From the sequence record NC_055708.1: a stretch of 64,000 bases of DNA; one strand, 5' to 3'. Position numbers and translations under genes: made by a program. A model generated the notes under the pieces. It ran no database searches. It saw only the letters and a list, made by a program, of their open reading frames with translations, and was not told the DNA's origin. Source of the stretch: Enterobacteria phage ATK47. Below are positions 9,822-62,857 of the stretch, piece by piece; within the stretch, counting starts at the first letter, position 1, and each line of letters opens with the position of its first letter.

Positions 9822-9860
9822 GTTTACAAGGTCTGTAGTTGTTGATACTATAGACCTATC
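9822..9860 (+). promoter_or_regulatory. early promoter with palindrome aggtct/agacct
   Basis: GTTTACA, TACTAT. Confidence 0.5.
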
Positions 9861-9889
9861 AAAACAAATGAGTGAATGGAGATATAAAA

Positions 9890-10090: not shown

Positions 10091-10130
10091 GTGTACAAAC
10101 TGATAGGACTATGTTATAGTAGTCCTATTA
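10091..10130 (+). promoter_or_regulatory. early promoter with palindrome ataggacta/tagtcctat
   Basis: GTGTACA, TATAGT, 9 bp inverted repeat. Confidence 0.5.
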
Positions 10131-10148
10131 AAACATGAGGAGAATATT

Positions 10149-10454
10149 ATGAAATTAGGCGAAACCAACCGAATTGGTCTTTTAACAATATTTGTATCAC
10201 TTTTTTACGCAGCTCTTTCTGTTGCAGTATTACAAAAGGCTTACAGTATGGATGGTGTTCCTGGTTTTGTATTCTTATCGCCGTTTTTGCTATTCGTTGG
10301 AGCATTGTTATTATATGCCACGACTAGTTTCGACCATAACGTCTGGGTCAATTATAAATGTAAATTGTCTGAAGAAGAACACGCAGAAGCTCGTAAAAAA
10401 GCTATTGAATCTACCAATCTAGAAAATTTCATTAAAGAATGTCGAGGAAAATAA
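10149..10454 (+). CDS. membrane protein, C-terminal NFIKECR motif family
   Basis: two TM segments; C-terminus LENFIKECRGK. Confidence 0.5.
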   Translation: MKLGETNRIGLLTIFVSLFYAALSVAVLQKAYSMDGVPGFVFLSPFLLFVGALLLYATTSFDHNVWVNYKCKLSEEEHAEARKKAIESTNLENFIKECRGK

Positions 10455-10455
10455 T

Positions 10456-11142
10456 ATGAATAGTTCTAAAGTGTTTAATAGTCAAGCTCGTGCAGTAGGT
10501 GGTTTTGCTCATGCGATTAAAAATGACCAGATTAAAAACGAGCCTATGTTCTTTAATTGCGATTTGAATTTTGCTTTTGATAACGGCGGTCCAATTACTC
10601 GTAGCTTTATCCAAAATCTCCCTGACGATTGGAAAGACTCGGATGTAGTATTTGATTCACGAGTCCATATGCTGATGCCTGGTTGGTATCCTGCTATTCC
10701 TGGTTATCACCATGATGACGTACCACGCCCGGATATTCCGGTTGGTCAACATTTTATTACTGCAGGACAACCTGACTATGACAATCCTCGCTATTTGTCT
10801 GAACATATTCTTGGTCTTGTTAACGCTGATGTGTGTCCTACTCATTTTGCAACAGGAACTGCAGAGTTCAGTCAGATTCCTGATGGCGAACTTATCTATC
10901 GCCAGTGTCACAAAGAAGTCCTCGAAAAAATTGAAAAAGGTGAACTAGAGAAATGGGAAGCTCCAGATCGTACTCTTCTTCAGTTTGATTGGCAAACATG
11001 GCACACTGGTTCTCGTGCAATTAGTAATGGATGGCGTTGGTTCGGACGTGTATCTCGTAATACAGACCGAGTTAAAAAGATTACCAATGAAATTCGTGTC
11101 AATGCTCAAGTTTATCTGGAATTCCCTATGGAAGGCTGGTAA
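10456..11142 (+). CDS. hypothetical protein (228 aa)
   Basis: ORF with SD GAGGAAAA. Confidence 0.5.
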   Translation: MNSSKVFNSQARAVGGFAHAIKNDQIKNEPMFFNCDLNFAFDNGGPITRSFIQNLPDDWKDSDVVFDSRVHMLMPGWYPAIPGYHHDDVPRPDIPVGQHFITAGQPDYDNPRYLSEHILGLVNADVCPTHFATGTAEFSQIPDGELIYRQCHKEVLEKIEKGELEKWEAPDRTLLQFDWQTWHTGSRAISNGWRWFGRVSRNTDRVKKITNEIRVNAQVYLEFPMEGW

Positions 11143-11633
11143 TGATTAACAAAACATATTGGTCTAATATAGACGATGGCAACGAAGGTATTTCGTACTA
11201 TTCAGTGGATTGGACAGGATGTCCATCCTACTTAGTGAAACGTATTTGCCAAGAATTTAAAATCGACCAGCCAGCAGGTATTATCGTGAACAGATACATT
11301 AATGGATATCAACCTATCGATGAAGTAATACGAACAACTCAAGCTGAGCTTGAAAAGTTTTTCAATAAGTGCCAATGGATAACAGGATGGATTATATTTG
11401 TACCGTCGGTATGGTTTTTCAGTACTAAGGTGAGTTCTTTCGGATTTGTTGATATTATTGCTATCTTATTAGCATCTAGTATCGTAAGTGTTGTTGGTGG
11501 CATCATTGGCGGCGGTACCGCCGCCATCATTATTAATCTTATTAAAAGTAGTTTACAAGAACATAAAGACAAGATAAAAGCCAAGAATAATGAAGTTGAA
11601 CGTTTTATTACCGAATGCAGGAATTTGAGATGA
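11142..11633 (+). CDS. membrane protein, C-terminal RFITECR motif family
   Basis: hydrophobic C-terminal half; motif VERFITECRNLR. Confidence 0.5.
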   Translation: MINKTYWSNIDDGNEGISYYSVDWTGCPSYLVKRICQEFKIDQPAGIIVNRYINGYQPIDEVIRTTQAELEKFFNKCQWITGWIIFVPSVWFFSTKVSSFGFVDIIAILLASSIVSVVGGIIGGGTAAIIINLIKSSLQEHKDKIKAKNNEVERFITECRNLR

Positions 11634-11866
11634 GTATAGCAATTTACATTAAATCAGAATCATGTGATAGTTATCTGTACACATATGATAAAGATGTGTC
11701 AGAAGAAAAAATCAAAGACGACCTTAATACGGACCTTGATATGTTCTGTCCTATTGCAGATTACAAACTTGCGGTCTCTAATAGTGAAAGTCCATCTAAA
11801 GAAACGCGCATTGAAGAATTTATGTCTGAATTAATGGCCAAATCATGGGACCGAGATGATGAGTAA
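11630..11866 (+). CDS. hypothetical acidic protein
   Basis: ORF from ATG at 11630 overlapping upstream stop. Confidence 0.4.
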   Translation: MSIAIYIKSESCDSYLYTYDKDVSEEKIKDDLNTDLDMFCPIADYKLAVSNSESPSKETRIEEFMSELMAKSWDRDDE

Positions 11867-30789: not shown

Positions 30790-31263
30790 ATGTTATTATC
30801 AGGCGCAAAATATAAAGAAGAAAAACAAAAATTTTATGATGCACAGAACGGTAAGTGTCCTATTTGCCACCGTGAATTAGACCCTGATGTTCAAGGTAAC
30901 CATCTTGACCATGACCACGAATTAAAAGGGCCAAAAGCCGGTAGAGTTCGTGGTTTACTATGTAACCTGTGCAATGCAGCAGAAGGTCAAATGAAGCATA
31001 AGTTCAACCGTTCCGGTTTGAAAGGTCAAAACGTTGACTACTTAGAATGGCTTGAAGCTCTTCTTGCTTATTTGAAACAAGATTATTCTGATAATAATAT
31101 CCATCCTAATTTTGTTCCGGATAAAACTAAAGAGTTCTCAAGACTAGGTAAAGAGGAAATGATGACCGAGATGCTTCAAAGAGGATTTGAATATAATGAA
31201 TCTGATACTAAAACACAATTAATAGCTTCATTCAAAAAGCAGCTTAGAAAGAGTTTAAAATGA
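30790..31263 (+). CDS. 49: endonuclease VII (Holliday junction resolvase)
   Basis: MLLSGAKYKEEKQKFYDAQNGKCPIC..HLDHDHEL..LCNLCNAAEGQ; near-identical to remembered T4 gp49; 157 aa. Confidence 0.9.
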   Translation: MLLSGAKYKEEKQKFYDAQNGKCPICHRELDPDVQGNHLDHDHELKGPKAGRVRGLLCNLCNAAEGQMKHKFNRSGLKGQNVDYLEWLEALLAYLKQDYSDNNIHPNFVPDKTKEFSRLGKEEMMTEMLQRGFEYNESDTKTQLIASFKKQLRKSLK

Positions 31264-33077
31264 AAATTGAAAAAGAAATTGAAGGATTAATTTATAAAAC
31301 TAATAAAGATCTTTTGAACGAGAATGCTAATAAAGATTCTCGTGTTTTTCCAACTCAACGGGACCTTATGGCTGGTATTGTGTCTAAGCACATTGCCAAA
31401 AATATGGTCCCGTCTTTTATTATGAATGCGCATGAAAGCGGAATCATTCATATGCATGATATTGATTATTCTCCTGCTCTTCCATTTACTAATTGCTGTT
31501 TAGTCGATTTAAAGGGGATGCTTGAGAATGGATTTAAATTAGGCAATGCTCAAATTGAAACGCCTAAATCGATTGGTGTTGCTACTGCAATTATGGCACA
31601 AATTACTGCACAAGTTGCTTCCCATCAATACGGCGGAACGACTTTTGCTAATGTAGATAAAGTACTTTCTCCTTATGTTAAACGCACCTATGCAAAACAT
31701 ATTGAGGATGCAGAAAAATGGCAAATCGCTGATGCGTTGAATTATGCTCAATCCAAAACAGAAAAAGATGTCTATGACGCATTCCAAGCTTATGAATATG
31801 AAGTAAATACTCTCTTTAGTTCAAACGGACAAACGCCTTTTGTAACAATTACATTTGGTACTGGAACTGATTGGACCGAACGAATGATTCAGAAGGCAAT
31901 TCTTAAAAACCGCATTAAAGGTCTTGGTCGTGATGGAATAACTCCTATTTTCCCTAAACTTGTTATGTTTGTCGAAGAGGGTGTTAATCTTTATAAAGAC
32001 GATCCGAACTATGATATTAAGCAACTCGCTCTAGAGTGTGCAAGCAAAAGAATGTATCCTGACATTATTTCTGTTAAGAATAATAAAGCTATTACCGGTT
32101 CTTCAGTTCCAGTTTCTCCAATGGGTTGCCGTAGTTTCTTGAGCGTATGGAAAGATTCGACCGGTAATGAAATTCTTGATGGACGTAATAATCTCGGTGT
32201 TGTAACACTGAATCTTCCTCGTATCGCATTAGATTCTTATATTGGAACACAGTTCAATGAACAGAAATTTGTTGAATTATTCAACGAACGAATGGATCTG
32301 TGCTTTGAAGCTTTGATGTGTAGAATTAGTTCCTTAAAAGGAGTTAAAGCGACTGTTGCTCCTATTCTTTACCAAGAAGGTGCATTCGGGGTTCGTCTTA
32401 AACCTGACGACGATATAATTGAGTTATTTAAAAACGGTAGAAGTTCAGTGTCTTTAGGATACATTGGTATTCATGAATTGAATATTCTTGTTGGCCGTGA
32501 TATTGGACAAGAAATTTTAACTAAGATGAATGCTCATCTTAAACAGTGGACTGAAAGAACTGGATTTGCTTTTAGCTTGTATTCTACACCTGCTGAAAAC
32601 CTTTGTTATCGTTTCTGTAAACTCGACACAGAAAAATACGGAAGTGTAAAGGATGTCACTGATAAAGGCTGGTACACTAATAGTTTCCATGTTTCAGTAG
32701 AAGAAAATATTACTCCGTTTGAAAAGATTTCTCGTGAAGCGCCATATCATTTCATTGCGACAGGTGGTCACATTTCTTATGTTGAACTTCCAGATATGAA
32801 AAACAATTTAAAGGGACTTGAGGCTGTCTGGGATTATGCTGCACAACATTTAGATTATTTTGGTGTTAATATGCCAGTAGATAAGTGTTTTACATGCGGA
32901 AGCACCCATGAAATGACTCCTACTGAAAACGGATTTGTTTGTTCAGTTTGCGGAGAAACTGATCCTAAAAAGATGAACACTATAAGAAGGACCTGCGGTT
33001 ATTTGGGAAATCCGAACGAGCGCGGATTTAATCTAGGCAAAAATAAAGAAATCATGCATAGGGTTAAACACCAATGA
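31260..33077 (+). CDS. nrdD: anaerobic ribonucleoside-triphosphate reductase NrdD
   Basis: 605 aa; C-terminal glycyl-radical motif RRTCGYLG and Zn ribbon CFTCGS..CSVCG. Confidence 0.9.
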   Translation: MKIEKEIEGLIYKTNKDLLNENANKDSRVFPTQRDLMAGIVSKHIAKNMVPSFIMNAHESGIIHMHDIDYSPALPFTNCCLVDLKGMLENGFKLGNAQIETPKSIGVATAIMAQITAQVASHQYGGTTFANVDKVLSPYVKRTYAKHIEDAEKWQIADALNYAQSKTEKDVYDAFQAYEYEVNTLFSSNGQTPFVTITFGTGTDWTERMIQKAILKNRIKGLGRDGITPIFPKLVMFVEEGVNLYKDDPNYDIKQLALECASKRMYPDIISVKNNKAITGSSVPVSPMGCRSFLSVWKDSTGNEILDGRNNLGVVTLNLPRIALDSYIGTQFNEQKFVELFNERMDLCFEALMCRISSLKGVKATVAPILYQEGAFGVRLKPDDDIIELFKNGRSSVSLGYIGIHELNILVGRDIGQEILTKMNAHLKQWTERTGFAFSLYSTPAENLCYRFCKLDTEKYGSVKDVTDKGWYTNSFHVSVEENITPFEKISREAPYHFIATGGHISYVELPDMKNNLKGLEAVWDYAAQHLDYFGVNMPVDKCFTCGSTHEMTPTENGFVCSVCGETDPKKMNTIRRTCGYLGNPNERGFNLGKNKEIMHRVKHQ

Positions 33078-45161: not shown

Positions 45162-47873
45162 ATGAAAGAATTTTACTTAACGGTTGAACAGATTGGTGAT
45201 TCAATTTTTGAACGTTACATCGATTCTAATGGCCGTGAACGTACTCGTGAAGTAGAATATAAACCATCACTGTTTGCTCATTGTCCAGAAAGTCAGGCTA
45301 CTAAATATTTCGATATCTACGGTAAACCTTGTACTCGTAAGTTGTTCGCTAATATGCGTGATGCCTCCCAATGGATTAAACGCATGGAAGATATCGGACT
45401 TGAAGCACTTGGCATGGACGATTTCAAATTGGCGTATTTGTCTGACACTTATAACTATGAAATCAAATATGACCATACAAAAATTCGTGTGGCTAACTTC
45501 GACATCGAAGTAACATCCCCGGATGGGTTCCCTGAGCCGTCACAAGCAAAACATCCGATTGATGCTATCACCCATTATGACTCAATTGACGACAGGTTCT
45601 ACGTATTTGATCTATTGAATTCTCCATATGGCAATGTAGAAGAATGGTCTATCGAAATTGCGGCTAAGCTTCAAGAACAAGGTGGTGATGAAGTTCCATC
45701 TGAAATTATCGATAAAATCATTTATATGCCGTTTGATAATGAAAAAGAATTATTGATGGAATATCTCAACTTCTGGCAACAGAAAACTCCTGTCATTTTG
45801 ACTGGATGGAACGTTGAGTCATTTGATATTCCATATGTGTATAATCGAATCAAGAATATTTTTGGTGAATCCACAGCAAAACGGTTGTCGCCACATCGTA
45901 AAACTCGTGTTAAAGTTATCGAAAACATGTATGGTTCTCGTGAAATCATTACATTGTTCGGTATCTCTGTTCTTGATTACATTGACCTTTACAAAAAATT
46001 CTCTTTCACAAACCAACCGTCGTATTCTCTGGATTACATTTCAGAATTTGAATTGAACGTTGGTAAACTGAAATATGACGGCCCTATTTCTAAGCTTCGT
46101 GAAAGCAATCACCAACGATATATTTCTTATAACATTATCGACGTATATCGTGTATTGCAAATTGATGCTAAACGCCAGTTCATTAACTTGAGCTTGGACA
46201 TGGGTTATTATGCTAAGATACAGATTCAATCTGTGTTTAGCCCAATTAAAACATGGGATGCTATTATTTTTAATAGCCTTAAAGAGCAGAACAAGGTGAT
46301 TCCACAAGGTCGTTCTCACCCGGTTCAACCTTATCCTGGCGCTTTTGTTAAGGAACCTATTCCAAATCGATACAAATATGTAATGAGTTTCGACCTTACA
46401 TCTCTGTATCCAAGTATTATTCGCCAAGTGAATATTAGCCCAGAAACAATAGCAGGAACGTTTAAAGTAGCTCCATTGCATGATTATATTAACGCAATCG
46501 CTGAACGTCCTTCAGATGTGTACAGTTGCTCTCCTAACGGCATGATGTATTATAAAGACCGTGACGGTGTAGTTCCAACTGAAATCACTAAGGTCTTTAA
46601 TCAACGTAAAGAACATAAAGGTTATATGCTTGCGGCTCAACGTAATGGTGAAATAATTAAAGAGGCGTTGCATAATCCTAATCTTTCTGTTGACGAACCA
46701 TTAGATGTTGATTATCGTTTCGACTTCACTGACGAGATTAAAGAAAAGATTAAAAAGTTGTCTGCTAAATCTCTTAATGAAATGTTGTTTAGAGCTCAAC
46801 GTACTGAAGTTGCAGGTATGACTGCACAAATTAACCGTAAATTGCTTATCAACTCGCTTTATGGTGCACTTGGTAACGTATGGTTCCGTTATTACGATTT
46901 GCGTAATGCTACTGCAATCACAACATTCGGGCAAATGGCTTTACAGTGGATTGAACGTAAAGTTAATGAATATCTGAATGAAGTTTGTGGTACAGAAGGT
47001 GAAGCTTTCGTTCTTTATGGTGATACAGACTCTATTTACGTATCTGCTGATAAAATTATCGATAAGGTTGGTGAATCTAAATTCCGTGATACCAACCATT
47101 GGGTAGACTTCTTAGATAAGTTTGCACGTGAACGTATGGAACCAGCTATTGATAAAGGTTTCCGTGAAATGTGTGAATACATGAACAATAAACAACACTT
47201 AATGTTCATGGACCGAGAAGCTATCGCTGGTCCTCCGCTCGGTTCTAAAGGTATTGGTGGATTCTGGACCGGTAAGAAACGTTATGCATTAAACGTGTGG
47301 GATATGGAAGGAACTAGATACGCTGAGCCTAAACTCAAAATCATGGGTCTCGAAACACAGAAATCTTCGACCCCTAAAGCAGTACAGAAAGCTCTTAAAG
47401 AATGTATTCGTCGTATGCTTCAAGAAGGTGAAGAATCATTACAAGAATATTTTAAAGAGTTTGAAAAAGAATTCCGTCAATTGAATTATATTAGCATCGC
47501 GTCAGTATCTTCTGCGAATAACATTGCTAAATATGACGTTGGTGGATTCCCTGGTCCTAAATGCCCGTTCCATATTCGTGGAATTCTGACATATAACAGA
47601 GCTATCAAAGGTAATATTGATGCTCCACAAGTTGTAGAAGGTGAAAAAGTATATGTTCTGCCTTTACGTGAAGGAAACCCATTCGGTGATAAATGTATCG
47701 CATGGCCTTCTGGTACTGAAATCACAGATTTAATTAAAGACGACGTACTTCATTGGATGGACTACACTGTTCTCCTTGAGAAGACATTTATTAAACCACT
47801 TGAAGGATTCACATCAGCAGCGAAACTCGATTACGAGAAGAAAGCATCTCTGTTCGATATGTTCGATTTTTGA
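45162..47873 (+). CDS. 43: DNA polymerase gp43 (family B, with 3'-5' exonuclease)
   Basis: 903 aa; exo motif FDIEV; polymerase motifs SLYPSII, YGDTDS. Confidence 0.95.
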   Translation: MKEFYLTVEQIGDSIFERYIDSNGRERTREVEYKPSLFAHCPESQATKYFDIYGKPCTRKLFANMRDASQWIKRMEDIGLEALGMDDFKLAYLSDTYNYEIKYDHTKIRVANFDIEVTSPDGFPEPSQAKHPIDAITHYDSIDDRFYVFDLLNSPYGNVEEWSIEIAAKLQEQGGDEVPSEIIDKIIYMPFDNEKELLMEYLNFWQQKTPVILTGWNVESFDIPYVYNRIKNIFGESTAKRLSPHRKTRVKVIENMYGSREIITLFGISVLDYIDLYKKFSFTNQPSYSLDYISEFELNVGKLKYDGPISKLRESNHQRYISYNIIDVYRVLQIDAKRQFINLSLDMGYYAKIQIQSVFSPIKTWDAIIFNSLKEQNKVIPQGRSHPVQPYPGAFVKEPIPNRYKYVMSFDLTSLYPSIIRQVNISPETIAGTFKVAPLHDYINAIAERPSDVYSCSPNGMMYYKDRDGVVPTEITKVFNQRKEHKGYMLAAQRNGEIIKEALHNPNLSVDEPLDVDYRFDFTDEIKEKIKKLSAKSLNEMLFRAQRTEVAGMTAQINRKLLINSLYGALGNVWFRYYDLRNATAITTFGQMALQWIERKVNEYLNEVCGTEGEAFVLYGDTDSIYVSADKIIDKVGESKFRDTNHWVDFLDKFARERMEPAIDKGFREMCEYMNNKQHLMFMDREAIAGPPLGSKGIGGFWTGKKRYALNVWDMEGTRYAEPKLKIMGLETQKSSTPKAVQKALKECIRRMLQEGEESLQEYFKEFEKEFRQLNYISIASVSSANNIAKYDVGGFPGPKCPFHIRGILTYNRAIKGNIDAPQVVEGEKVYVLPLREGNPFGDKCIAWPSGTEITDLIKDDVLHWMDYTVLLEKTFIKPLEGFTSAAKLDYEKKASLFDMFDF

Positions 47874-47913
47874 TATAATGCCATGGACGGTAAACTAATT
47901 AAATGAGAGAAAT

Positions 47914-48549
47914 ATGAAAACTACACCAATCACTATCGCTATTGACGCAATCGTAAAACAAGCTTCTTCTTTGGCTACTATGGCCAAAGTAATTAGTCAA
48001 AACCCTGCTCGTTATAATGCTATTCTAGAAACTCTTCGACGCCCAGGACTTAGTAATTATGAAAGCCGAGTAATTATTACAGGTGTTGGTAAGAATGCTA
48101 ATATTGCAACTAAAGCTTCTGAGACATTTGCTTCACTCGGTATCCCAAGTATGTACTTGAACACCGGGCATTATTCTCACGGTGATGCAGGATTCATTGC
48201 GCCTAATGATGTGTTGATTCATATTAGTCGTTCTGGTAAGACTGAAGAAATGATAGGTGTTGCTAAACATCTTCGTATGATTCGTCCTCAGGTTAAACAG
48301 ATTCTGTTACATTGTAACCCTGACATTCCACAAGAATACGAAGCTCTTTTTGATTATACGTTCTGTACCGGTATCGCGGTAGAAGTTGACGAGAACTCTT
48401 TAGCTCCGACAATGTCCACTACATTGTTGTTAGCGCTTATCGATACGTTCGCTATCAACCTTTCGTCTGAACGCGGATTTACCTCTAATGACTTCCTTAA
48501 GTTCCACCCTGGTGGTGCACTAGGTGCCATGTTACGAGGCGAGCAATGA
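47914..48549 (+). CDS. SIS-domain sugar-phosphate isomerase (KdsD/GutQ arabinose-5-phosphate isomerase-like, no CBS domains)
   Basis: ITGVGKNANIATK, HGDAGFI, ISRSGKTEE, LAPTMSTT and FHPGGALG match SIS-domain isomerase motifs. Confidence 0.7.
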   Translation: MKTTPITIAIDAIVKQASSLATMAKVISQNPARYNAILETLRRPGLSNYESRVIITGVGKNANIATKASETFASLGIPSMYLNTGHYSHGDAGFIAPNDVLIHISRSGKTEEMIGVAKHLRMIRPQVKQILLHCNPDIPQEYEALFDYTFCTGIAVEVDENSLAPTMSTTLLLALIDTFAINLSSERGFTSNDFLKFHPGGALGAMLRGEQ

Positions 48550-48689
48550 AAGCAATAACAATAGGACTTTTACTATTGATGCTTGTCATGACTATCTACT
48601 GGAGCTTAACGGCTCCAGTAATGATTCCGACTCTTATAATCGGATGGATTATGATTGGACTACAAGCAAAGTATGAATGCTTTAACTAG
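48546..48689 (+). CDS. small hydrophobic protein (47 aa, below ORF-track cutoff)
   Basis: translated by hand; ATGA overlap with upstream stop. Confidence 0.3.
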   Translation: MKAITIGLLLLMLVMTIYWSLTAPVMIPTLIIGWIMIGLQAKYECFN

Positions 48690-48730
48690 AATAGTGTACA
48701 ATACACCTACTTACCAATGAGGACCACAAC

Positions 48731-50416
48731 ATGAAAAAAGCTGTTATTCTTGGTGCTGGACTGGCAACTCGTTTGTATCCAATAACGCATCATATTCCTA
48801 AGGTGCTTGTTAACTATAAACAAGACACTATTCTGAGCAATTTGTATACAATTTATTCTGACCTTGGCGCAGATGAAATTATTGTAGTAGTTCATTCAAA
48901 ATTTGCTGAAACTGTTCGAGCTTATTGCGAGCAAGAAGGGTTCAATGCGACTATTCGTACAGTTGATGAAGCGTATGGTTCTGCTTATGCTCTTGCTAAA
49001 TTATACAAAGATTTAGATGGCCATAATGTAATTGTTAACTGGTGTGATATTATTCCTGATTTTGGTTCATGGTCTTGGAATGTTAACGCAATCTATGTTA
49101 AGGGTGATGAATGTCGATATAATTTCGATGGTGAAAATATCACTAACGTAGGTTCAACAGGCGGTAATGTTGTAGGAATTTATCAGTTCAAAGACTGGGA
49201 ATTCTACATGGGTTCTACTGATGAGGAAATTCACGAATACTGCAAAGGACGTGATTTCGTAGAATTCCTTTACGGCAGTGCATTCAATAAATCAGAGCTT
49301 ATGAATCTAATTGATTTAGGTGATATGCCTAAACTTGAAAAAGCTCATGAAGTTCGTGAACTTAATCGTAGTTTTAATGCAGTTGAAATTGGCGAAGAAA
49401 CTGTAACTAAATTCGCGTTAACCGAACAAGGTCGAGCTCTTCAGAAAGATGAGATTTCATGGTATTTGAAAGTGAAATCAGATTCAGTCCCTCAGTTAGT
49501 TTCTGTTAATGAAAATAACTTTGAAATGGAACGTATTAAAGGTAAGCCGGCATTTGAATATATTAAATCCAAATCAAGTCTTGCTCGTCCACAAATTGTT
49601 GATGCAATTTTAGATGCACTGAAATTCAGCACAGACACTTATTTTGTAAGTCCTGAAACTGTTCGCCGTGATTTCACTAAAGAGTTCTATACGAAAGTTA
49701 TTGATCGTTGTGAAAGCATTCAGCCATTGATTGATTCATTTGGTAAAATCACACACGTGAACTACACTAAGATTGGACGTCTGAAGCCAATGTTGAAACA
49801 AGCTTTAGAACATCTTATTCGTTATCATAACCGTTCTCAGGGACAGTACTCTGTTATTCACGGTGATCCGAACTTCAGTAATACTATGATTACTGATAAC
49901 GGCGAAGTCAAGTTTATCGACCCTCGTGGATATTTTGGTGAAACCAAGATTTACGGACCAAAATTGTATGATGAAGCTAAAGTGCTTTATGCTGTTTCAG
50001 GTTATGATGAATTCAACGCTAATCCGACCTGGGGCCAGTTTATTATTGATGAAACAACTTGTAATGTGACTATTAACATCAATCCATTAGTTTACAAATA
50101 TGGAAAGATGAGTTCGTTTAACGAGTATCATCATTTGGCAGTAGCAATTATCTGGATTGCATTAGGTGGTTATTTCAAGAATAATCCACTTAAAGCGGTA
50201 GCCGCATATTATAAAGGTATGGAACTTCTGACTAAGCAATTACGTAACATGGGCCGTGTACTTCAAGATGGCTCTATTAGTTATGACGTAGCAGAACCTG
50301 TAACGGCTACTCTGATTACAAAAAATCCTGGTAAATGGGTACTAACTGATAAAGAAACTGGTGTTTCCTATCGTCCAATCGGTGGCGATATCACTCATCA
50401 ATGGGAACGAATCTAA
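48731..50416 (+). CDS. bifunctional sugar-1-phosphate nucleotidyltransferase (N-terminal) / anomeric sugar kinase (C-terminal)
   Basis: N-terminal AVILGAGLATRL as in LicC/RmlA-type nucleotidyltransferases; C-terminal HGDPNFSNTMI...FIDPRG as in choline/aminoglycoside/AmgK kinases. Confidence 0.7.
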   Translation: MKKAVILGAGLATRLYPITHHIPKVLVNYKQDTILSNLYTIYSDLGADEIIVVVHSKFAETVRAYCEQEGFNATIRTVDEAYGSAYALAKLYKDLDGHNVIVNWCDIIPDFGSWSWNVNAIYVKGDECRYNFDGENITNVGSTGGNVVGIYQFKDWEFYMGSTDEEIHEYCKGRDFVEFLYGSAFNKSELMNLIDLGDMPKLEKAHEVRELNRSFNAVEIGEETVTKFALTEQGRALQKDEISWYLKVKSDSVPQLVSVNENNFEMERIKGKPAFEYIKSKSSLARPQIVDAILDALKFSTDTYFVSPETVRRDFTKEFYTKVIDRCESIQPLIDSFGKITHVNYTKIGRLKPMLKQALEHLIRYHNRSQGQYSVIHGDPNFSNTMITDNGEVKFIDPRGYFGETKIYGPKLYDEAKVLYAVSGYDEFNANPTWGQFIIDETTCNVTININPLVYKYGKMSSFNEYHHLAVAIIWIALGGYFKNNPLKAVAAYYKGMELLTKQLRNMGRVLQDGSISYDVAEPVTATLITKNPGKWVLTDKETGVSYRPIGGDITHQWERI

Positions 50417-50802
50417 TGCACCGTGTAGAAAACATGCTTAATCTTTGTTTTGATGTCGATGATTGTATAACAGAGTGGAATAACAATCGTGATTATGTGA
50501 ACTTCAAACCAGACGTCGAAATGGTGACCGCCATTAATGCCCTGTATGATGCAGGGCATACCATAACGCTTTACACTGCTCGTGGTATGAAGTCGGTAGG
50601 TCCTGGTCGTATAGCAATTGACATTCTCCCAAGTCTGATTCAGAACTTGGAAAACATTGGTTTGAAGTACCATAATTTGCTAACACATAAACCAGTATAT
50701 GATTGGATTATCGACGACAAAGCTATGCGTCCTGACGAATTCAAAGCTCTTATGAATAAAGGCGAATTCGAAACATTTAAATCGTATAAACCGAATCTAT
50801 AA
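50416..50802 (+). CDS. HAD-superfamily phosphatase
   Basis: motif I FDVDDCIT; small cap-less HAD architecture; TAATG overlap with upstream gene. Confidence 0.55.
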   Translation: MHRVENMLNLCFDVDDCITEWNNNRDYVNFKPDVEMVTAINALYDAGHTITLYTARGMKSVGPGRIAIDILPSLIQNLENIGLKYHNLLTHKPVYDWIIDDKAMRPDEFKALMNKGEFETFKSYKPNL

Positions 50803-50853
50803 TAATTTAAGTAAGACCTGCAAAAAAAAACCCATCGCATCAATTAACGCGAG

Positions 50854-52023
50854 ATGCAAAAAATGAATACTTTTAAAATCGGAACGAATTTTGATTTAGC
50901 TCTTCTTGATAAAATCGTAGAGCTCAATAAAACTTATCCTAATAGCTTGATAAATGAAGTATACGGCTCTACAAGAGAAATGGCTTTTGTAGCAGCCAGA
51001 CCTGATTTTAGGCTTCCTGACGTTGACAAAAAGATGTTAGAAGACTACGTTAAACGTTGTAACGAATTAGGTATTTGCTTTAACTATACACTCAACACGA
51101 TAAATCCTGGTTCAAAAAGAGAACTAGTTGAGTGGAAGAAGAAAGCTATTCAGGATTATGTTCAGTATCTTTGGTCAATAGGCGTATGGCGTATTACTAT
51201 CGCTAACCCTGTTGTTATGGAAATTGTTCGTGAAGTCAATAAAGACATTGAGATTGAAGTTTCAACAATTCTACATGTTGATGCTGTAACTCAAATCAAA
51301 TACTTGCACGACCAATATAACATCAAAAAAGTCTGTTGCGGAATTCATAAGAACCGTTCAGTTTCTTTCCTGAAGCGTGCAGCAGAGTTTTGCAATAAGA
51401 ACAATATAATATTTGAAGTTCTTGTAAATGAGTTCTGTTCTAATGCTGGTAAAGGGTATACAACACATTGTAGCTATCGTGACTCTTGCTATATTTTCCA
51501 TAGTACTGATGTTACCGCTGATGATGCTAAATCCTTAAATGGATATCCTATGCAGCACTGTATTAAAGCTCGTGATACAGACCCATTTAACTGGCTGAGA
51601 ACTCGTTTTGTTCGTCCTCAAGATTTGAAACTTTATAATGATATTGGTATCACTCAATTCAAAGTTTCAGGACGTACAGGTAGCACAGACTACATTTTGA
51701 AAGTTCTTGAAGCATACGCTTCTGAAAAGTTTGAAGGTAATTTGTTAGAACTGTGGAAGCCTTTAGAGACTATTTTCACTCTTGAAAATGAGACTGAGTT
51801 TTCACATACAGTAAATATTGAAACCTCATTGTTAGACGGTTTTTTAGAAAAAAGGTGGTTCAGACATCCAGATTTCGATTGTGCTAATGAAATCTGCGGG
51901 ACGACGTGTACATATTGTGAAAGATATTATAAACGTCAGTTATCTAAAAATGGGTTATCAGAAAACTCTATATCTATTATTGATATAACTAACTCTGATG
52001 ACGCTTTGAGGTACCCGGAATGA
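50854..52023 (+). CDS. hypothetical protein, Cys-rich C-terminus (candidate sugar-modifying or transferase enzyme)
   Basis: 389 aa ORF inside the island; CANEICGTTCTYC cluster; function not recognisable. Confidence 0.45.
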   Translation: MQKMNTFKIGTNFDLALLDKIVELNKTYPNSLINEVYGSTREMAFVAARPDFRLPDVDKKMLEDYVKRCNELGICFNYTLNTINPGSKRELVEWKKKAIQDYVQYLWSIGVWRITIANPVVMEIVREVNKDIEIEVSTILHVDAVTQIKYLHDQYNIKKVCCGIHKNRSVSFLKRAAEFCNKNNIIFEVLVNEFCSNAGKGYTTHCSYRDSCYIFHSTDVTADDAKSLNGYPMQHCIKARDTDPFNWLRTRFVRPQDLKLYNDIGITQFKVSGRTGSTDYILKVLEAYASEKFEGNLLELWKPLETIFTLENETEFSHTVNIETSLLDGFLEKRWFRHPDFDCANEICGTTCTYCERYYKRQLSKNGLSENSISIIDITNSDDALRYPE

Positions 52024-52259
52024 TTTCTAGAAAAACTTTTAACCACCAACTTAATGAAGAGATTTTGACTATAAAACTGAACACTAACGAACAAATTCTT
52101 AAAAAGGCCCTTATGGGCCTGTTTGAAACCAAAGCGGCTAAAGTGATTAAAGAACCTGTTCAATTGGAATACTACACTGATGCATTCCTTCATAGTGTTC
52201 TTGGAAGTATAGATTCTGAAGCTTTACGTTATATCAACATTGCCAAGAAATTCAAATAA
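52020..52259 (+). CDS. hypothetical protein
   Basis: 79 aa ORF, ATGA overlap. Confidence 0.4.
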   Translation: MISRKTFNHQLNEEILTIKLNTNEQILKKALMGLFETKAAKVIKEPVQLEYYTDAFLHSVLGSIDSEALRYINIAKKFK

Positions 52260-52301
52260 GCTTTACGAATTGAGTATATAATAAATTGTATTGAGGTAAA
52301 C

Positions 52302-53018
52302 ATGGGAAAACATAACACAATGAAATATATCAAAGCCGCAGATTTTCAAGCCGCATTTAAAGCAGTCAATCGTGAAATTTTAGAAAATCCTGAATTCGTA
52401 ACTGATTCTCGTATTGGACGTTGTAATGAAATCGGGTCCATGACAGTAGTTGTTGACAATCCATCATCATTCAAAATGACCGACCCACGTATTAACCGCA
52501 TCTCTTATGAATATGCCGAAGACTTCTGGAAGTTTATGATTTCTGGTGGTACTGATGCAGAAGAAGCGTTTAAGGCATATCCTAATGTCGCTAAATTTAT
52601 TTCTAAACCTAAATCAGACGCTTTGCCGGCGAACTTCAACACTTTCTATGGTCCTCGCATTGCGGCCCAATTACCAGCTCTTCTAAAAGAACTTAAAGAG
52701 AAACCTAACTCTCGAAGAGTTGTGTTCCAAATTCTAGAAAGTTCTGATCAGGCTTTGCTTGATTCGGACGAAACACTTGAATATCCATGTACTGACTCAG
52801 TGACTTATTATATTCGCGATGGTAAGCTTTATACCCACTGTCATATGCGTTCTCAGAACTGTGCTGTTGTTATGCAGTTGGATTTTTATCTCCAAGGAAA
52901 ATTACTTCATTATATCGCTAACGAATGCGGCGTAGAAGTTGGTGATTATACTCATACCATGGTAAGTGCCCATGTGTTTGAACGTGATTTTGATTATGTT
53001 AAAGGATTCCTTGACTAA
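52302..53018 (+). CDS. thymidylate-synthase-family deoxypyrimidylate hydroxymethylase (gp42-like, divergent)
   Basis: KPNSRRVVF, nucleophile motif YPCTDSVTYYIRD, MRSQN...QLDFY align to remembered T4 dCMP hydroxymethylase NPDSRR / MCTNTVQYLIRD / MRSND...RNDY. Confidence 0.7.
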   Translation: MGKHNTMKYIKAADFQAAFKAVNREILENPEFVTDSRIGRCNEIGSMTVVVDNPSSFKMTDPRINRISYEYAEDFWKFMISGGTDAEEAFKAYPNVAKFISKPKSDALPANFNTFYGPRIAAQLPALLKELKEKPNSRRVVFQILESSDQALLDSDETLEYPCTDSVTYYIRDGKLYTHCHMRSQNCAVVMQLDFYLQGKLLHYIANECGVEVGDYTHTMVSAHVFERDFDYVKGFLD

Positions 53019-53917
53019 TGGCTATTTTCCGCGTACCAATCTTGAGTATGCGGTCTTATGAAACTGGACAGTATGCTATCCTTAAGGATGGCAACTTCCA
53101 ACTTCATTTGCACCGTGCTAATCCAGGTGATGTGATTACATATCCACGTAATGCATCTGATATTAAAGAATGTGAACGTCTTTTCCCGGAATTTAAGTTT
53201 GTTCCATTATGGTATAAAGATAACGCGTATAACACTCGTAAATATTTCTGGTCTGAAAATGAATTTGTGGTTGATTCATTAATTGCTTATTATGATTGTG
53301 ATTTTCTAATAACAGATATCACTGGATATGACGGCGCTTTTGATGTAGAATTCAATTTCAATATCACTGCAGACCCTAATAAACCACGTTTTTATATTGA
53401 TGAATTCTTAAAAACCGATATGTTGTCGGTTAATCGTTCACTTCAAACTACTGTGTTGAATGAACGTCAAAAAGAAGTGCTGGTTAACGCCGGTGCAGAT
53501 GGTAATAAGATTATCGTAACGCAGAAAGTTATACGTCCTTCCATCATGCAGCGTCTTGTAGGTGATTTGGCTCCTATTCATGTAGATGGTATTTTTCATC
53601 CATTTCGAATTAGTGATCCGTGTTATCATTTTGAACAAGTGGTTGAATGTGCAATTCAATTAGGTCAACCGCTTTATATAACTGATCCAAATAATAGCTT
53701 TGACAGAAATAAGTATCCTGAAGAAGCGCTGATTCGAATTTTTAAACCAACTAAAACTGAGTACTATCAAATTCTTAAAGGACGTCCGAAGATTCAATAT
53801 TTCGAAAATCCTGAAGAAGTATTCCATCCAGGTCTTGGTGAGTTCATCTACTTTAATGCTTTAATTTCTTCGCCGTATAATATACCTAAATACGAAGATG
53901 TCGTAATCGAGGAATAA
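53018..53917 (+). CDS. hypothetical protein at T4 beta-gt position (candidate DNA glycosyltransferase)
   Basis: 299 aa ORF, position only; no motif recognised. Confidence 0.4.
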   Translation: MAIFRVPILSMRSYETGQYAILKDGNFQLHLHRANPGDVITYPRNASDIKECERLFPEFKFVPLWYKDNAYNTRKYFWSENEFVVDSLIAYYDCDFLITDITGYDGAFDVEFNFNITADPNKPRFYIDEFLKTDMLSVNRSLQTTVLNERQKEVLVNAGADGNKIIVTQKVIRPSIMQRLVGDLAPIHVDGIFHPFRISDPCYHFEQVVECAIQLGQPLYITDPNNSFDRNKYPEEALIRIFKPTKTEYYQILKGRPKIQYFENPEEVFHPGLGEFIYFNALISSPYNIPKYEDVVIEE

Positions 53918-53918
53918 A

Positions 53919-54467
53919 ATGGCTAAAATTATTTTAGTAGATGGCCCAGATAATGCTGGTAAAACAACTTTCATTAATGACATAATGGAAATTAGTGAAA
54001 GATATGTAAAGATTGATTTCCCTAAACGAACAGTTGATGGACGTTTCGATGTTAAGTCTCGAAATGAAGTTGGCTGTTTCGAAACGATGTTGAATTATTT
54101 AGACCCTACTAAGATTTATCTGTTAGACCGTGGATATATTAGTAACTGGGTTTATGGACGTATTCGACAAGATGCGGACTCGGTTCTTGACGTTTATGAA
54201 CAGGACTATGTTCGTCTTTGCCAAAACCATGATGTGTTCACAATTATTTTAACACGTAACGAAATGACTGAAAGTTTTGAAGACGACCTTATTACTTTGT
54301 CTTCATTCGGTTTTAATACAGTCATTTCACATTTTGAAGAGTTTGCAATTCATAACAAAATCCAAACGTATCAATTACTTAATCATGATGGTGCTAACAA
54401 AGTTATAGGATTTAATGCAAGCGAACGTAATTATTTGATTACAGAAATTATCAAATGGGCTCGTTAA
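53919..54467 (+). CDS. thymidylate-kinase-like P-loop nucleotide kinase
   Basis: P-loop VDGPDNAGKTT and LDRGYISNWVYG (DRY-type motif) resemble dTMP kinase family. Confidence 0.55.
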   Translation: MAKIILVDGPDNAGKTTFINDIMEISERYVKIDFPKRTVDGRFDVKSRNEVGCFETMLNYLDPTKIYLLDRGYISNWVYGRIRQDADSVLDVYEQDYVRLCQNHDVFTIILTRNEMTESFEDDLITLSSFGFNTVISHFEEFAIHNKIQTYQLLNHDGANKVIGFNASERNYLITEIIKWAR

Positions 54468-54565
54468 GAGCCATTTAAAGTTTTAAATGCTGTATAACCA
54501 TTAGTATATAATTGTCTTATCTTTTAAACATGAGTAAAATATAATGATGCCTATGGAAAAATACA

Positions 54566-58617: not shown

Positions 58618-58986
58618 ATGAAAAAATTAATCGCTTTAGCAATGGTATTTGGATTAACCGGATGTGGTGCCCATGGCTTTATCCCTAATAACGTCGGCCA
58701 ATTGATTTACAATCCGAATGTTAAACAGTACGACCAACCTAAAGTTGAAGTGGAAGACCCGGTTACTGTAGGTAATCGAATGATTCAAGCTGATGCCCAT
58801 GCTCAACGTTATCGTGATTCTGATACTGTAGCATTGTCAAAAGAACAACGCGTTAAAGAACATTGCTTACAGGCTACTGAAATCGCATTCATTCGCTATG
58901 TTGAAACAACTGGTAAAGAGCCTTCCCAGAAACAAATCGCGAATAACTACGTCCAGTGTATTGAACGTTTAAACAAATTTAATTAA
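58618..58986 (+). CDS. lipoprotein (lipobox LTGC)
   Basis: signal peptide MKKLIALAMVFGLTGC. Confidence 0.5.
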   Translation: MKKLIALAMVFGLTGCGAHGFIPNNVGQLIYNPNVKQYDQPKVEVEDPVTVGNRMIQADAHAQRYRDSDTVALSKEQRVKEHCLQATEIAFIRYVETTGKEPSQKQIANNYVQCIERLNKFN

Positions 58987-58989
58987 TTG

Positions 58990-59025
58990 GTTTACACCAA
59001 AGTTAAAATAAGATACTATAAACAT
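58990..59025 (+). promoter_or_regulatory. early promoter
   Basis: GTTTACA, GATACTAT. Confidence 0.45.
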
Positions 59026-59047
59026 AACAAATCAAGAGGAAATTAAC

Positions 59048-59296
59048 ATGGAATTATTCGTAGCTAGTTCAGTAGCAGTTTTAATCGCAGGTATTGGTTC
59101 AATCATCATTTACATGTTGCCTTGGGTAATCGCACTTATTCGTGGCACAAAAAGCACAACAGCAATCTTCTTTGTATCTTTGCTCTTTAACTGGACGATG
59201 GTTGGTTGGATTGGAACTTTAATTTGGTCTATCGTTGCCGAAAAGAAATCTGCTCAGCAGCCTCAACAAGTAATTATTATTCGCGAAAAAGAATAA
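59048..59296 (+). CDS. imm: superinfection-immunity (Imm)-like membrane protein
   Basis: two TM segments; PWVIALIRGTKSTTAIFFVSLLFNWTMVGWIGTLIWS resembles the Imm family pattern. Confidence 0.5.
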   Translation: MELFVASSVAVLIAGIGSIIIYMLPWVIALIRGTKSTTAIFFVSLLFNWTMVGWIGTLIWSIVAEKKSAQQPQQVIIIREKE

Positions 59297-62335: not shown

Positions 62336-62857
62336 ATGGCACACTTTAATGAATGTTCACAACTTATTTCTGGTGTTGATAAAGCAGAAGAAGCTTATTT
62401 TAATGCTCTGATTCACGAAGATAAAGACCCACTGCAGGTAATGCTTGATATGCAGAAATCTTTACAGGTTCGTCTGGCAAATGACAAGCCTGAACATAAC
62501 AAACATCCTGATGAATTGGCCACTGCTGGTGATGTTGTTGATTGGCTGCGTAATCAGAAAGATTATATTGATGATGAATTCCGTGAACTGTTGACTTCAC
62601 TTGGTGGTATGAGCAATGGTGAAAAAGCCGCCAGCAGTGTATGGAAGCCATGGAAAGCACAACATGCTGAATATCGAAATCGTCGTATCGATGAACTGTC
62701 TCCTGAAGACCAGCTTGAAATTAAATTTGAAATGATTGATATTCTGCATTTCGTTCTAAATATGTTCCAAGGTCTAGGTCTTTCGGCTGAAGAAATCTTT
62801 AAACTTTACTACTTGAAAAACCAACACAACTTTGAACGTCAGGATAATGGTTACTAA
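62336..62857 (+). CDS. 56: dCTPase/dCDPase gp56 (MazG-like)
   Basis: MAHFNECSQLI...; 173 aa; position next to 61 as in T4. Confidence 0.8.
   Translation: MAHFNECSQLISGVDKAEEAYFNALIHEDKDPLQVMLDMQKSLQVRLANDKPEHNKHPDELATAGDVVDWLRNQKDYIDDEFRELLTSLGGMSNGEKAASSVWKPWKAQHAEYRNRRIDELSPEDQLEIKFEMIDILHFVLNMFQGLGLSAEEIFKLYYLKNQHNFERQDNGY

Follow-up and report, generated by a model that had tools for sequence, protein, structure and literature searches.

Background

The closest described relatives of the locus analysed here are found in phages whose DNA carries arabinosylated cytosines. Experiments with RB69 gp48 demonstrated the conversion of dCMP into 5-hydroxy-dCMP (5hodCMP) (Lee et al., NAR 2026, PMC13326640). 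Expression of gp48 with its cognate dNMP kinase led to the entry of 5hodC into E. coli DNA, labelling with 18O2 gave a +2 Da product, showing that the hydroxyl oxygen derives from O2, and FMN is released from the purified enzyme, which is yellow and binds its flavin loosely (PMC13326640). In the same assay T4 gp42 produces 5hmdC, with a retention time unlike that of the 5hodC formed by RB69 gp48 (PMC13326640). The virion DNA of RB69 contains mono- and di-arabinosylated 5-hydroxycytosine; the base is arabosyl-5-hydroxycytosine, in which an ether bond at C5 holds the sugar, and not the arabinosyl-hmC first reported in 2018 (PMC6024577), and the base fragment has an m/z of 128.05, not the 142.06 of hmC (PMC13326640). 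The enzyme of phage HY126 combines flavin binding with O2-dependent hydroxylation of dCMP, as it is cited in PMC13326640, and gp80 of Acinetobacter phage DLP3 is another 5hodCMP synthase, the sequence comparison in the current study having been made with DLP1 and not DLP3. A crystal structure with flavin exists for a near-identical ortholog, and the replacement of Asp169 of the E. coli thymidylate synthase (TS) by Asn (D169N) was proposed as a diagnostic signature of 5hodCMP synthases (PMC13326640).

We analysed a 64,000-nucleotide stretch of Enterobacteria phage ATK47 (NC_055708.1), hereafter the window. A first-pass annotation, made from the sequence only, had proposed that 52302..53018 encodes a divergent hydroxymethylase of the TS family with a cytosine substrate, whose divergence may reflect co-evolution with a different sugar transferase encoded downstream. 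The superfamily, the cytosine substrate and the transferase are retained here; the hydroxymethylase activity and the co-evolution are not. The divergence of this gene is real yet already explained, because its product shares 99% identity with an RB69 enzyme that was characterised in 2025-2026; publications of those years described the enzyme family, its product, the cofactor switch and the gene cluster, and nothing in them is biologically new here. A U32-family gene of the same cluster provides a side observation that may be new.

Results and discussion

Gene structure and divergence from T4

The gene and its putative expression signals are the following:

52302..53018, + strand: 5hodCMP synthase, almost certainly (TS superfamily, RB69 gp48 ortholog), from the ORF, Pfam, identity and signature residues
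52293..52296, + strand: ribosome-binding site GAGG, by sequence inspection
52258-52265 and 52277-52282, + strand: putative T4-type middle promoter, AAGCTTTA and TATAAT separated by an 11-nt gap

The ORF encodes 238 aa, starts with ATG, stops with TAA and is preceded by the GAGG at 5 nt from the ATG. A middle promoter is a possible reading of AAGCTTTA and TATAAT, based on what we take to be the MotA-box consensus. Scanning the cassette for sigma-70 promoters and terminators gave matches no commoner than in shuffled sequence.

Membership of the TS superfamily is supported by the Pfam Thymidylat_synt model (PF00303; E 2.4e-15, 56.9 bits for a cut-off of 24.3), with a match confined to aa 122-235, and by PDB matches to TS and MilA at E about 1e-11. 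An AlphaFold2 single-sequence model was unusable (mean pLDDT 42). The ORF lies between gene 43 and uvsX, in the genome slot of T4 gp42, with a DNA glycosyltransferase gene after it; its product shares only 54/218 residues (25%; E 7e-13, BLASTP) with gp42. The first-pass annotation contrasted this divergence with neighbours considered nearly identical to T4. The contrast is real but was overstated: the proteins then named are 82% (lysozyme e), 91% (DenV), 91% (gp55) and 88% (gp49) identical to those of T4, others reach 62% (gp43), 68% (UvsX) and 85% (gp41), and the neighbouring genes range overall from 60 to 92%. A few nrdC.x-like ORFs without an assigned function diverge from T4 as much as the 52302..53018 protein does (24-30% identity). 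At the DNA level, no part of 47721..54565 matches T4. The nrdD protein is 99% identical to that of T4; a recent exchange with T4, considered on this ground, was rejected as no DNA segment of at least 100 nt reaches 93% identity to T4.

In the 52302..53018 protein, 236/238 residues are identical to RB69 gp48 (NP_861738.1) and 234/238 to the HY126 enzyme (XAN60475.1), the sequence of which corresponds, by exact sequence identity, to PDB 9IQC/9IR2 (also 9IQU). The substitutions relative to these two enzymes lie at A17, E31, N53 and E87 and affect no signature position. We are thus highly confident that 52302..53018 encodes a 5hodCMP synthase, predicted to combine a TS fold with flavin and O2 in place of methylene-tetrahydrofolate and to hydroxylate dCMP at C5. 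Proteins with 95% identity or more to it occur in at least 150 phage records; in the 13 of these that were listed, the annotations, where given, are thymidylate synthase, dCMP hydroxymethylase or hypothetical protein.

Residues separating the hydroxylase from hydroxymethylases and thymidylate synthases

Residues were mapped on a MAFFT alignment of 8 sequences. The nucleophile motif recognised in the first-pass annotation, 162-PCTDS-166, is aligned to 147-MCTNT-151 of T4 gp42, and C163 occupies the position of T4 C148 and E. coli C146, invariant across the alignment. As also anticipated, the Asp of QLDFY (D194) is aligned to T4 D179 and E. coli N177, and the cytosine substrate deduced from it was right, RB69 gp48 using dCMP (PMC13326640). 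E160 stands at the E. coli L143 position, an acidic replacement also present in T4 gp42. N186 corresponds to E. coli D169, where T4 gp42 keeps an Asp (D171), in an ungapped motif reading MRSQN in the window protein, MRSND in T4 and QRSCD in E. coli. C163, E160, N186 and D194 are all kept in six homologs of the clade, from Escherichia, Serratia, Acinetobacter and Rhizobium phages, down to 34% identity. Folate-site residues are also changed across this clade (in E. coli numbering W80 to A97, E58 to F75 and G173 to V190, the N-terminal-half positions E58 and W80 being mapped by MAFFT at 20-25% identity and not by structural superposition), whereas T4 gp42 and ThyA both keep them. Relative to gp42, D171, W82, E60 and G175 are replaced by N186, A97, F75 and V190; the D171/N186 equivalence is alignment-robust and those of W82 and E60 depend on the MAFFT alignment.

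A T4-type dCMP hydroxymethylase, forming 5-hydroxymethyl-dCMP from methylene-THF for later arabinosylation, would share several of these features, namely the catalytic Cys, the Asp at the N177 position and the acidic residue at the L143 position, as well as the gp42 slot between gene 43 and uvsX with a DNA glycosyltransferase next. It also agrees with the GenBank annotation of Mosigvirus ATK48, to which we assign the window ("deoxycytidylate 5-hydroxymethyltransferase") and with the arabinosyl-hmC reported for RB69 in 2018 (PMC6024577). It is, however, refuted for the 99% identical RB69 gp48, which makes 5-hydroxy-dCMP with oxygen from 18O2 and bound flavin, giving 5hodC where gp42 gives 5hmdC, and the base fragment of RB69 DNA is that of hydroxycytosine (m/z 128.05) and not of hmC (142.06) (PMC13326640). 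The window protein itself carries N186 where gp42 (D171) and ThyA (D169) keep Asp, and has lost W82 and E60 of gp42. Beyond the 25% identity, gp42 reaches 29.8 bits with 9IQC, a score not above those of ordinary bacterial thymidylate synthases, and is absent from the 60 best PDB matches of the window protein, the sequence of which is at least as distant from gp42 as from an ordinary TS. We therefore consider a hydroxymethylase very improbable.

Even less credit can be given to a thymidylate synthase converting dUMP into dTMP, the name given by many GenBank records and by PHROGs. The Asp instead of Asn at N177, the Glu instead of Leu at 143 and the replacement of D169, W80 and E58 in the folate site all argue against this activity, as do the absence of the C-terminal ~45 residues of ThyA and the experimental product of the ortholog, 5hodC. 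Pfam, PHROGs and NCBIfam matches are all to TS models and the annotation recurs in many phage records, but every NCBIfam TS equivalog is far under its cut-off (70.1 versus 174.55 bits for the best).

The hydroxylase therefore remains our interpretation, and the divergence from gp42 reflects a change of chemistry and cofactor, from folate to flavin, instead of the proposed co-evolution of a hydroxymethylase with its sugar transferase. The first-pass annotation had named an Asn at the discriminator position or the loss of the catalytic Cys as observations that would refute its own proposal. The alignment reveals neither, and such a test misses a hydroxylase: a hydroxymethylase and a hydroxylase look alike at the nucleophilic Cys and at the Asn/Asp discriminator, while the D169 equivalent, here N186, is the informative residue and tells them apart. 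The practical value of this case is thus a caution about annotations relying on the Cys and Asn/Asp check.

The arabinosyl-5-hydroxycytosine cassette

Arabinosylation genes are present on both sides of the 52302..53018 ORF. The gene order is that of RB69 ORFs 045-055, with protein identities of 92-99.7%, and a similar cluster is found in Acinetobacter phage DLP1. The genes concerned, with two located elsewhere in the window, are:

47914..48549, + strand: arabinose-5-phosphate isomerase (RB69 gp55 ortholog; phrog_5670, E 1.5e-116; ATK48 annotation), 97% identical to RB69p055
48731..50416, + strand: bifunctional sugar kinase / NDP-sugar pyrophosphorylase (RB69 gp52:53, like HY126 AfhE)
50401..50802, + strand: HAD-like phosphatase (RB69 gp51, like HY126 AfhF; phrog_1238), 98% identical to RB69p051
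50854..52023, + strand: U32-family protein (RB69 gp50 ortholog; Pfam Peptidase_U32, E 7.4e-11), 99.7% identical to RB69p050
52020..52259, + strand: 79-aa ORF of unknown function (RB69 gp49 ortholog; phrog_8601), 92% identical to RB69
53018..53917, + strand: DNA arabinosyltransferase 1 (RB69 gp46:47 ortholog; phrog_3891; role from PMC13326640 Table 1)
53919..54467, + strand: thymidylate-kinase-like nucleotide kinase (RB69 gp45 ortholog; phrog_761, E 2.4e-45; PMC13326640 Table 1), 99% identical to RB69p045
62336..62857, + strand: dCTPase (T4 gp56-type NTP pyrophosphohydrolase; phrog_173, E 1.6e-45)
3..503, + strand: dNMP kinase (T4 gp1 / RB69 gp159 ortholog; phrog_139, E 7.9e-42), C-terminal part of a gene starting before the window, 74% identical to T4 gp1

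The different sugar transferase expected downstream is the RB69 gp46:47-type arabinosyltransferase, the start of which shares one base with the stop codon of the hydroxylase gene (TAATG). It is 98-99% identical to RB69 ORFs 046+047 and forms here a single intact ORF of 299 aa; similarly, 48731..50416 is a single intact ORF of 561 aa, 99% identical to RB69 ORFs 052+053, with a Pfam NTP_transferase match (E 3.7e-9) and weak kinase matches. In the published scheme, the HAD-like phosphatase converts arabinose-1,5-bisphosphate into arabinose-1-phosphate, the gp52:53-type enzyme makes UDP-arabinofuranose and RB69 gp159 acts on 5hodCMP (PMC13326640). The start of the 79-aa ORF overlaps the stop codon of the U32 gene and the ORF is frameshifted in HY126. 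It has no Pfam match, even at E 10. Other genera carry a chorismate mutase in this place, as in Serratia phage LC53, but the 79-aa ORF was rejected as a counterpart because the two proteins show no similarity; Yersinia phage phiR1-RT carries both types of genes.

By TS-family chemistry, Cys163 would add to C6 of dCMP, with Asp194 reading and protonating the N3/N4 face of the cytosine like Asp179 of T4 gp42. The target of the activated C5 would then be a flavin-derived oxygen species (a C4a-hydroperoxide, presumably) in place of a folate iminium, and elimination of the Cys would free 5hodCMP; the reductant, the hydroperoxide intermediate and the covalent Cys adduct are all putative parts of this scheme. 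The product would be phosphorylated by the phage dNMP kinase (3..503) and further to 5hodCTP, presumably by the host NDP kinase, while the 62336..62857 dCTPase, by analogy with T4 gp56 and RB69p028, would remove dCTP and supply dCMP, leaving the phage polymerase to put 5hoC into DNA instead of C. The 53018..53917 enzyme would then join arabinofuranose to the 5-OH of the base in DNA, using UDP-Araf provided by the products of 47914..50802, and the resulting arabinosyl-5-hydroxycytosine DNA would be resistant to restriction enzymes. The hydroxyl added to cytosine nucleotides is therefore what would allow the phage to coat its DNA with arabinose.

A possible second route to 5-hydroxycytosine

The O2 requirement of the TS-like hydroxylase raises the possibility that two routes exist and that this enzyme covers only the aerobic one, an interpretation compatible with its identification as a 5hodCMP synthase. 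We put forward tentatively, at somewhat less than even chances, that the U32 gene (50854..52023) encodes a prephenate-dependent, O2-independent pyrimidine C5-hydroxylase acting as an anoxic route beside it. The product of this gene is listed in one paper as a possible "sugar or heterocycle reductase". The characterised U32 proteins are all involved in O2-independent hydroxylation, RlhA forming ho5C in rRNA, TrhP ho5U in tRNA, together with UbiU/V, with prephenate as the oxygen donor in this family (PMC5727448, PMC6599085, PMC10990095).

The linkage of U32 homologs to chorismate mutase, to DAHP synthase and to the same glycosyltransferase without TS homolog suggests a second route. A Pfam-significant chorismate mutase, the enzyme making prephenate, is present in 54 phage records and adjoins the U32 gene or the TS homolog in the records examined. 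Unrelated metagenomic phage contigs of low GC content have the U32 homolog beside a gene resembling that of DAHP synthase, the first enzyme of the shikimate pathway. In four contigs the U32 homolog adjoins a homolog of the window arabinosyltransferase, with a thymidylate-kinase-like gene also near in three of them (L019-L021), and no TS homolog occurs within 5-10 kb on either side of it. The phage U32 gene was retrieved in 220 phage records, the named hosts of which are Enterobacterales and Shewanella, presumably facultative anaerobes. Acinetobacter and Rhizobium, accounting for 64 and 22 TS-homolog records, are absent from the U32 host genera listed, and DLP1, the one Acinetobacter cluster examined, is devoid of the gene. 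Conversely, Dhakavirus JS10 lacks U32 although its host is E. coli.

Nine Cys and one His, including a C-terminal Cx4Cx3Cx2C, are invariant over 50 U32 homologs and are probably conserved metal ligands. However, the phage protein has no significant pairwise similarity to RlhA, TrhP, UbiU and UbiV of E. coli and no sequence match in the PDB, and only two of the four canonical Fe-S cysteines of the family align, so that it is the Pfam profile that assigns it to the U32 family. That the TS-like hydroxylase is the aerobic arm of two routes, the U32 protein giving the same base without O2, is accordingly a plausible but not a favoured scenario. If true, the U32 route would explain the replication in the anoxic gut of phages replacing all their cytosine through an O2-dependent enzyme, and prephenate-dependent hydroxylation would extend from RNA and quinones to DNA precursors.

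Comparison with known systems

The RB69 gp48 and HY126 enzymes have the same length, signature (Cys, L143E, D169N, N177D) and gene neighbourhood as the window protein and differ from it by just 2-4 substitutions, all in the N-terminal third; in practice they are the same protein. The ortholog of the Acinetobacter phage DLP1 (Lazarusvirus) is about 70% identical to it.

The best non-self PDB relatives are the ThyA of E. coli, L. casei and S. aureus, matched in the C-terminal catalytic half at E about 1e-11 to 1e-12, which share the phosphate-binding Arg pair, R166/S167, Y94, H207 and the Cys. The window protein differs from them by N177D, L143E and D169N and by N-terminal 120 aa unrecognised by the Pfam model, and ThyA transfers a methyl, whereas the 5hodCMP synthase operates without methyl transfer. 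MilA, a CMP 5-hydroxymethylase (PDB 5B6D/5JNH), differs by its ribonucleotide substrate, its folate dependence and the hydroxymethylation it performs. RlhA and TrhP share the 5-hydroxypyrimidine outcome, but have an unrelated fold and cofactors and act on RNA; they bear on the U32 gene (50854..52023) and not on 52302..53018.

T4 gp42 (PDB 1B49/1B5D/1B5E) has in common with the 5hodCMP synthase the TS fold, the nucleophilic Cys, the cytosine-selecting Asp, the acidic residue at the L143 position, the dCMP substrate, the genome slot before a DNA glycosyltransferase and a product phosphorylated by a gp1-type kinase. It differs by four residues changed in the window protein (D171 to N, W82 to A, E60 to F and G175 to V) and by the use of CH2-THF and water instead of flavin and O2. 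Its product bears C5-CH2OH, that of the 5hodCMP synthase C5-OH, and in the latter case the sugar is therefore ether-bonded directly to the ring.

Identity of the thymidylate synthase homolog

The open reading frame at 52302..53018 (+) comprises 238 codons with ATG start and TAA stop, exactly as the first-pass annotation had placed it, and a GAGG of ribosome-binding type can be read in the sequence 5 nt before the ATG. Its product matches the Pfam thymidylate-synthase (TS) family PF00303 (E 2.4e-15) over residues 122-235 only, so the N-terminal half is missed by the model, and it scores far under the curated cut-offs of all NCBIfam thymidylate-synthase equivalog models (top 70.1 bits vs 174.55). 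A single-sequence AlphaFold model gave a pLDDT of 42. Just 5' of the gene, AAGCTTTA followed by 11 nt and TATAAT (52258..52282, +) resembles a T4 MotA-dependent middle promoter; promoter and terminator scans of the surrounding cassette gave hits no commoner than in shuffled sequence.

The protein had been called a hydroxymethylase. Its near-identity to RB69 ORF048c (gp48; 236/238 residues), together with the signature residue described below, identifies it instead as an already known enzyme, 5-hydroxy-2'-deoxycytidine-5'-monophosphate (5hodCMP) synthase, a dCMP 5-hydroxylase. A PDB sequence search retrieved 9IQC/9IR2 and 9IQU (E 2.4e-161), entries titled just “thymidylate synthase”; by genome comparison, the 9IQC sequence is exactly that of the phage HY126 homolog XAN60475.1, from which the window protein differs at four positions (A17S, E31Q, N53T, E87K).

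The DNA of RB69 and of Acinetobacter phage DLP3 contains mono- and poly-arabinosylated 5-hydroxycytosine, the sugar being attached by an ether bond straight to C5 (Lee et al., Nucleic Acids Res 2026, PMC13326640; first released as a preprint in June 2025). In the same study, RB69 gp48 or DLP3 gp80 with the cognate dNMP kinase produced 5-hydroxy-dC in E. coli DNA, and T4 gp42 (dCMP hydroxymethylase) gave 5-hydroxymethyl-dC in the same assay. The product was labelled by 18O2, the purified proteins were yellow and released FMN, and Asn at the E. coli D169 position was defined as the signature of “5hodCMP synthases”, nine more D169N homologs being validated (PMC13326640). As cited there, the crystal structure of the flavin-containing HY126 enzyme and its in-vitro reconstitution are due to He et al. 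(Nat Chem Biol 2026), and related phages to Mahler et al. (Cell Host Microbe 2025). The Mosigvirus enzyme is likewise called a 5hodCMP synthase, and set apart from 5hmdCMP synthase, in a 2026 paper on the Durham phage collection.

Positions 40000-64000 of the window are 100% identical to Enterobacteria phage ATK48 (KT184310.1), a Mosigvirus related to RB69, whose record labels the hydroxylase hydroxymethyltransferase. In about 150 phage records there is a protein that shares 95% identity or more with it; the annotations, where given, in the 13 listed are thymidylate synthase, dCMP hydroxymethylase or hypothetical protein.

Active-site residues

The window protein was aligned with RB69 gp48, its homologs from Dhakavirus JS10, Serratia phage 92A1, Acinetobacter phage DLP1 and Rhizobium phage AF3, T4 gp42 and E. 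coli thymidylate synthase (ThyA). The ThyA sequence used shows the expected residue at all 12 numbered landmark positions checked. The nucleophile C163 aligns with T4 C148 and E. coli C146, and D194 with T4 D179 and E. coli N177; the earlier deduction of a cytosine substrate from these residues was right. An Asn discriminator or a lost Cys, proposed at that stage as arguments against a hydroxymethylase, are blind to the difference between hydroxylase and hydroxymethylase, and both C163 and D194 are present. Contacts to the dCMP phosphate and ring are kept (R138/R139, R183, S184, Y116, H224), and E160 occupies the L143 position (T4 D145). The window clade departs from both folate-dependent enzymes at four positions, where its replacements are uniform in six of six members, down to 34% identity.

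Residues at the four positions (ThyA; T4 gp42; window)
D169; D171; N186
W80; W82; A97
E58; E60; F75
G173; G175; V190

The D169 position is robust because its motif is ungapped (MRSQN / MRSND / QRSCD); the W80 and E58 equivalents rest on the sequence alignment.

Organization of the arabinosylation cassette

The genes around the hydroxylase correspond to RB69 ORFs 045-055, with 92-99.7% protein identity.

Genes of the cassette and related genes in the window
3..503, dNMP kinase, C-terminal part
47914..48549, arabinose-5-phosphate isomerase
48731..50416 (+), bifunctional kinase/pyrophosphorylase, similar to AfhE of the HY126 arabinose pathway
50401..50802, HAD phosphatase, similar to AfhF of the same pathway
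50854..52023 (+), U32-family protein
52020..52259 (+), 79-aa ORF (RB69 gp49, phrog_8601)
52302..53018 (+), hydroxylase
53018..53917 (+), arabinosyltransferase 1, its start sharing one base with the hydroxylase stop (TAATG)
53919..54467, thymidylate-kinase-like nucleotide kinase
62336..62857, dCTPase

In the window, the arabinosyltransferase (299 aa) and the kinase/pyrophosphorylase (561 aa) are each encoded by one uninterrupted ORF. Both are unannotated in the ATK48 GenBank record, which has only 'repeat_region' features over the latter gene, and each is split in two ORFs in the RB69 record, which has been put down to sequencing errors (PMC13326640).

Translation of the 79-aa ORF is coupled to that of the U32 gene. 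No family was detectable for it; at 92% identity to RB69 its conservation falls below that of its neighbours (97-99.7%), and its homolog is frameshifted in HY126. It was considered as a counterpart of the chorismate mutase of Serratia phage LC53 and is a separate gene, since the two coexist in Yersinia phage phiR1-RT.

A possible oxygen-independent route involving the U32 gene

The hydroxylase requires O2, yet the host bacteria of these phages live in the gut. Characterised U32 proteins carry out O2-independent hydroxylation: RlhA forms ho5C2501 of 23S rRNA, TrhP forms ho5U34 of tRNA, and UbiU/UbiV belong to the same family, prephenate being the oxygen donor of UbiU/V and the donor proposed for all U32 proteins (PMC5727448, PMC6599085, PMC10990095). 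The U32 gene of the window could tentatively be assigned to a prephenate-dependent, O2-independent route to 5-hydroxycytosine, a reading to which we give somewhat less than an even chance. The literature searched gave no description of such a route and mentioned the gene only in a table entry, as “sugar or heterocycle reductase”.

The gene occurs in 220 phage records, whose listed host genera are Enterobacterales, with one Shewanella phage among the rows. The TS homolog also occurs in 64 Acinetobacter and 22 Rhizobium phage records, neither genus being among the U32 hosts listed, and the cluster of Acinetobacter phage DLP1 is without U32. These enterobacterial and Shewanella hosts are facultative anaerobes, and Acinetobacter is a strict aerobe. 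Dhakavirus JS10, which infects E. coli, also lacks U32, so the pattern is one-directional. Across 50 homologs of 46-85% identity, nine Cys and one His never vary (C161, C195, C206, C212, H216, C236, C343-x4-C348-x3-C352-x2-C355), which together with the host range suggests the O2-independent route. Against it, pairwise comparison of the phage protein with the four E. coli U32 proteins (RlhA, TrhP, UbiU, UbiV) gave no significant match, and of the four canonical cluster cysteines just two could be aligned.

In LC53, a chorismate mutase (Pfam CM_2, E 1.7e-11, over the gathering cut-off) lies between U32 and the TS homolog; its homologs, present in 54 phage records, adjoin one or the other wherever coordinates were compared. 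A database search returned 282 clusters of U32 homologs, including a large clade 50-58% identical on low-GC phage-like contigs. Seven metagenomic contexts were inspected. An arabinosyltransferase homolog (E 4e-17 to 5e-9) accompanies U32 in four: in loci L019-L021 it directly precedes U32, and in L018 it stands two genes further upstream. In each of L019-L021 the transferase is itself immediately preceded by a thymidylate-kinase-like gene, the L019 call being a weak match to the window kinase. A DAHP-synthase-like gene follows U32 in two of the seven; the L018 copy fits the DAHP synthase model better than that of KDO8P synthase (E 2.6e-70 vs 2.9e-17), both under the curated equivalog cut-offs. 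In L022 (contig Ga0307355_100913, 24% GC), the DAHP-synthase-like gene beside U32 (2767-3540) has an in-frame stop under genetic code 11, which may point to a phage with stop-codon recoding or to a sequencing error. In two contexts U32 is preceded by a dCMP-deaminase gene, with overlapping coding ends in L015. No TS-family gene was found within 5-10 kb on either side of U32 in any of the seven. The pairing with chorismate mutase, DAHP-synthase-like genes and the same arabinosyltransferase, with no TS nearby, likewise suggests an O2-independent, prephenate-dependent origin of 5-hydroxycytosine.

Comparison with T4

Translations of all window ORFs were compared with some 63 kb of T4 sequence.

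Protein identity to T4
lysozyme e, 82%
DenV, 91%
gp55, 91%
gp49, 88%
gp43, 62%
UvsX, 68%
gp41, 85%
TS homolog vs gp42, 25% (54/218; E 7e-13)

The contrast drawn in the first-pass annotation between a divergent gp42 homolog and its neighbours is real (25% vs 62-91%), “nearly identical” being an overstatement for the latter. Elsewhere in the window, just two tRNA genes occur at 3435..3589 (+), Met-CAT and Arg-TCT, vs eight in T4, and 4.5 kb (7383..11865) are without a DNA-level match to the T4 regions compared. NrdD (31260..33077, +; 605 aa) is uninterrupted, without intron or I-TevII; its protein sequence is 99% identical to that of T4 over 425 aa, with no DNA segment reaching 93% identity, which reflects strong purifying selection and not recent exchange.

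Besides itself, the hydroxylase best matched bacterial thymidylate synthases (E about 1e-11 to 1e-12) and MilA (E 2.8e-11) in the PDB, and T4 gp42 was not among its best 60 matches; in the reverse search, 9IQC scored 29.8 bits with T4 gp42 and did not outrank ThyA of E. coli or B. subtilis. Because neither direction favours a link to gp42, the gene is, as judged from sequence, a separate branch of the TS superfamily in the gp42 position and not a fast-evolving gp42. Co-evolution with a sugar transferase, the earlier explanation, was loosely right in that a different transferase is adjacent; what the divergence itself reflects is a change of reaction and cofactor.

The longest stretch of the window without a DNA-level match to T4 is 47721..54565. 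Homologs of T4 imm.1 (32% identity) and imm (64%) lie at 58618..59296 (+), downstream of gene 41. In T4, imm.1 and imm adjoin gene 42, whereas here the arabinosylation cassette, between gene 43 and uvsX, has taken that position, filling the slot of imm.1-imm-42-beta-gt-segA.
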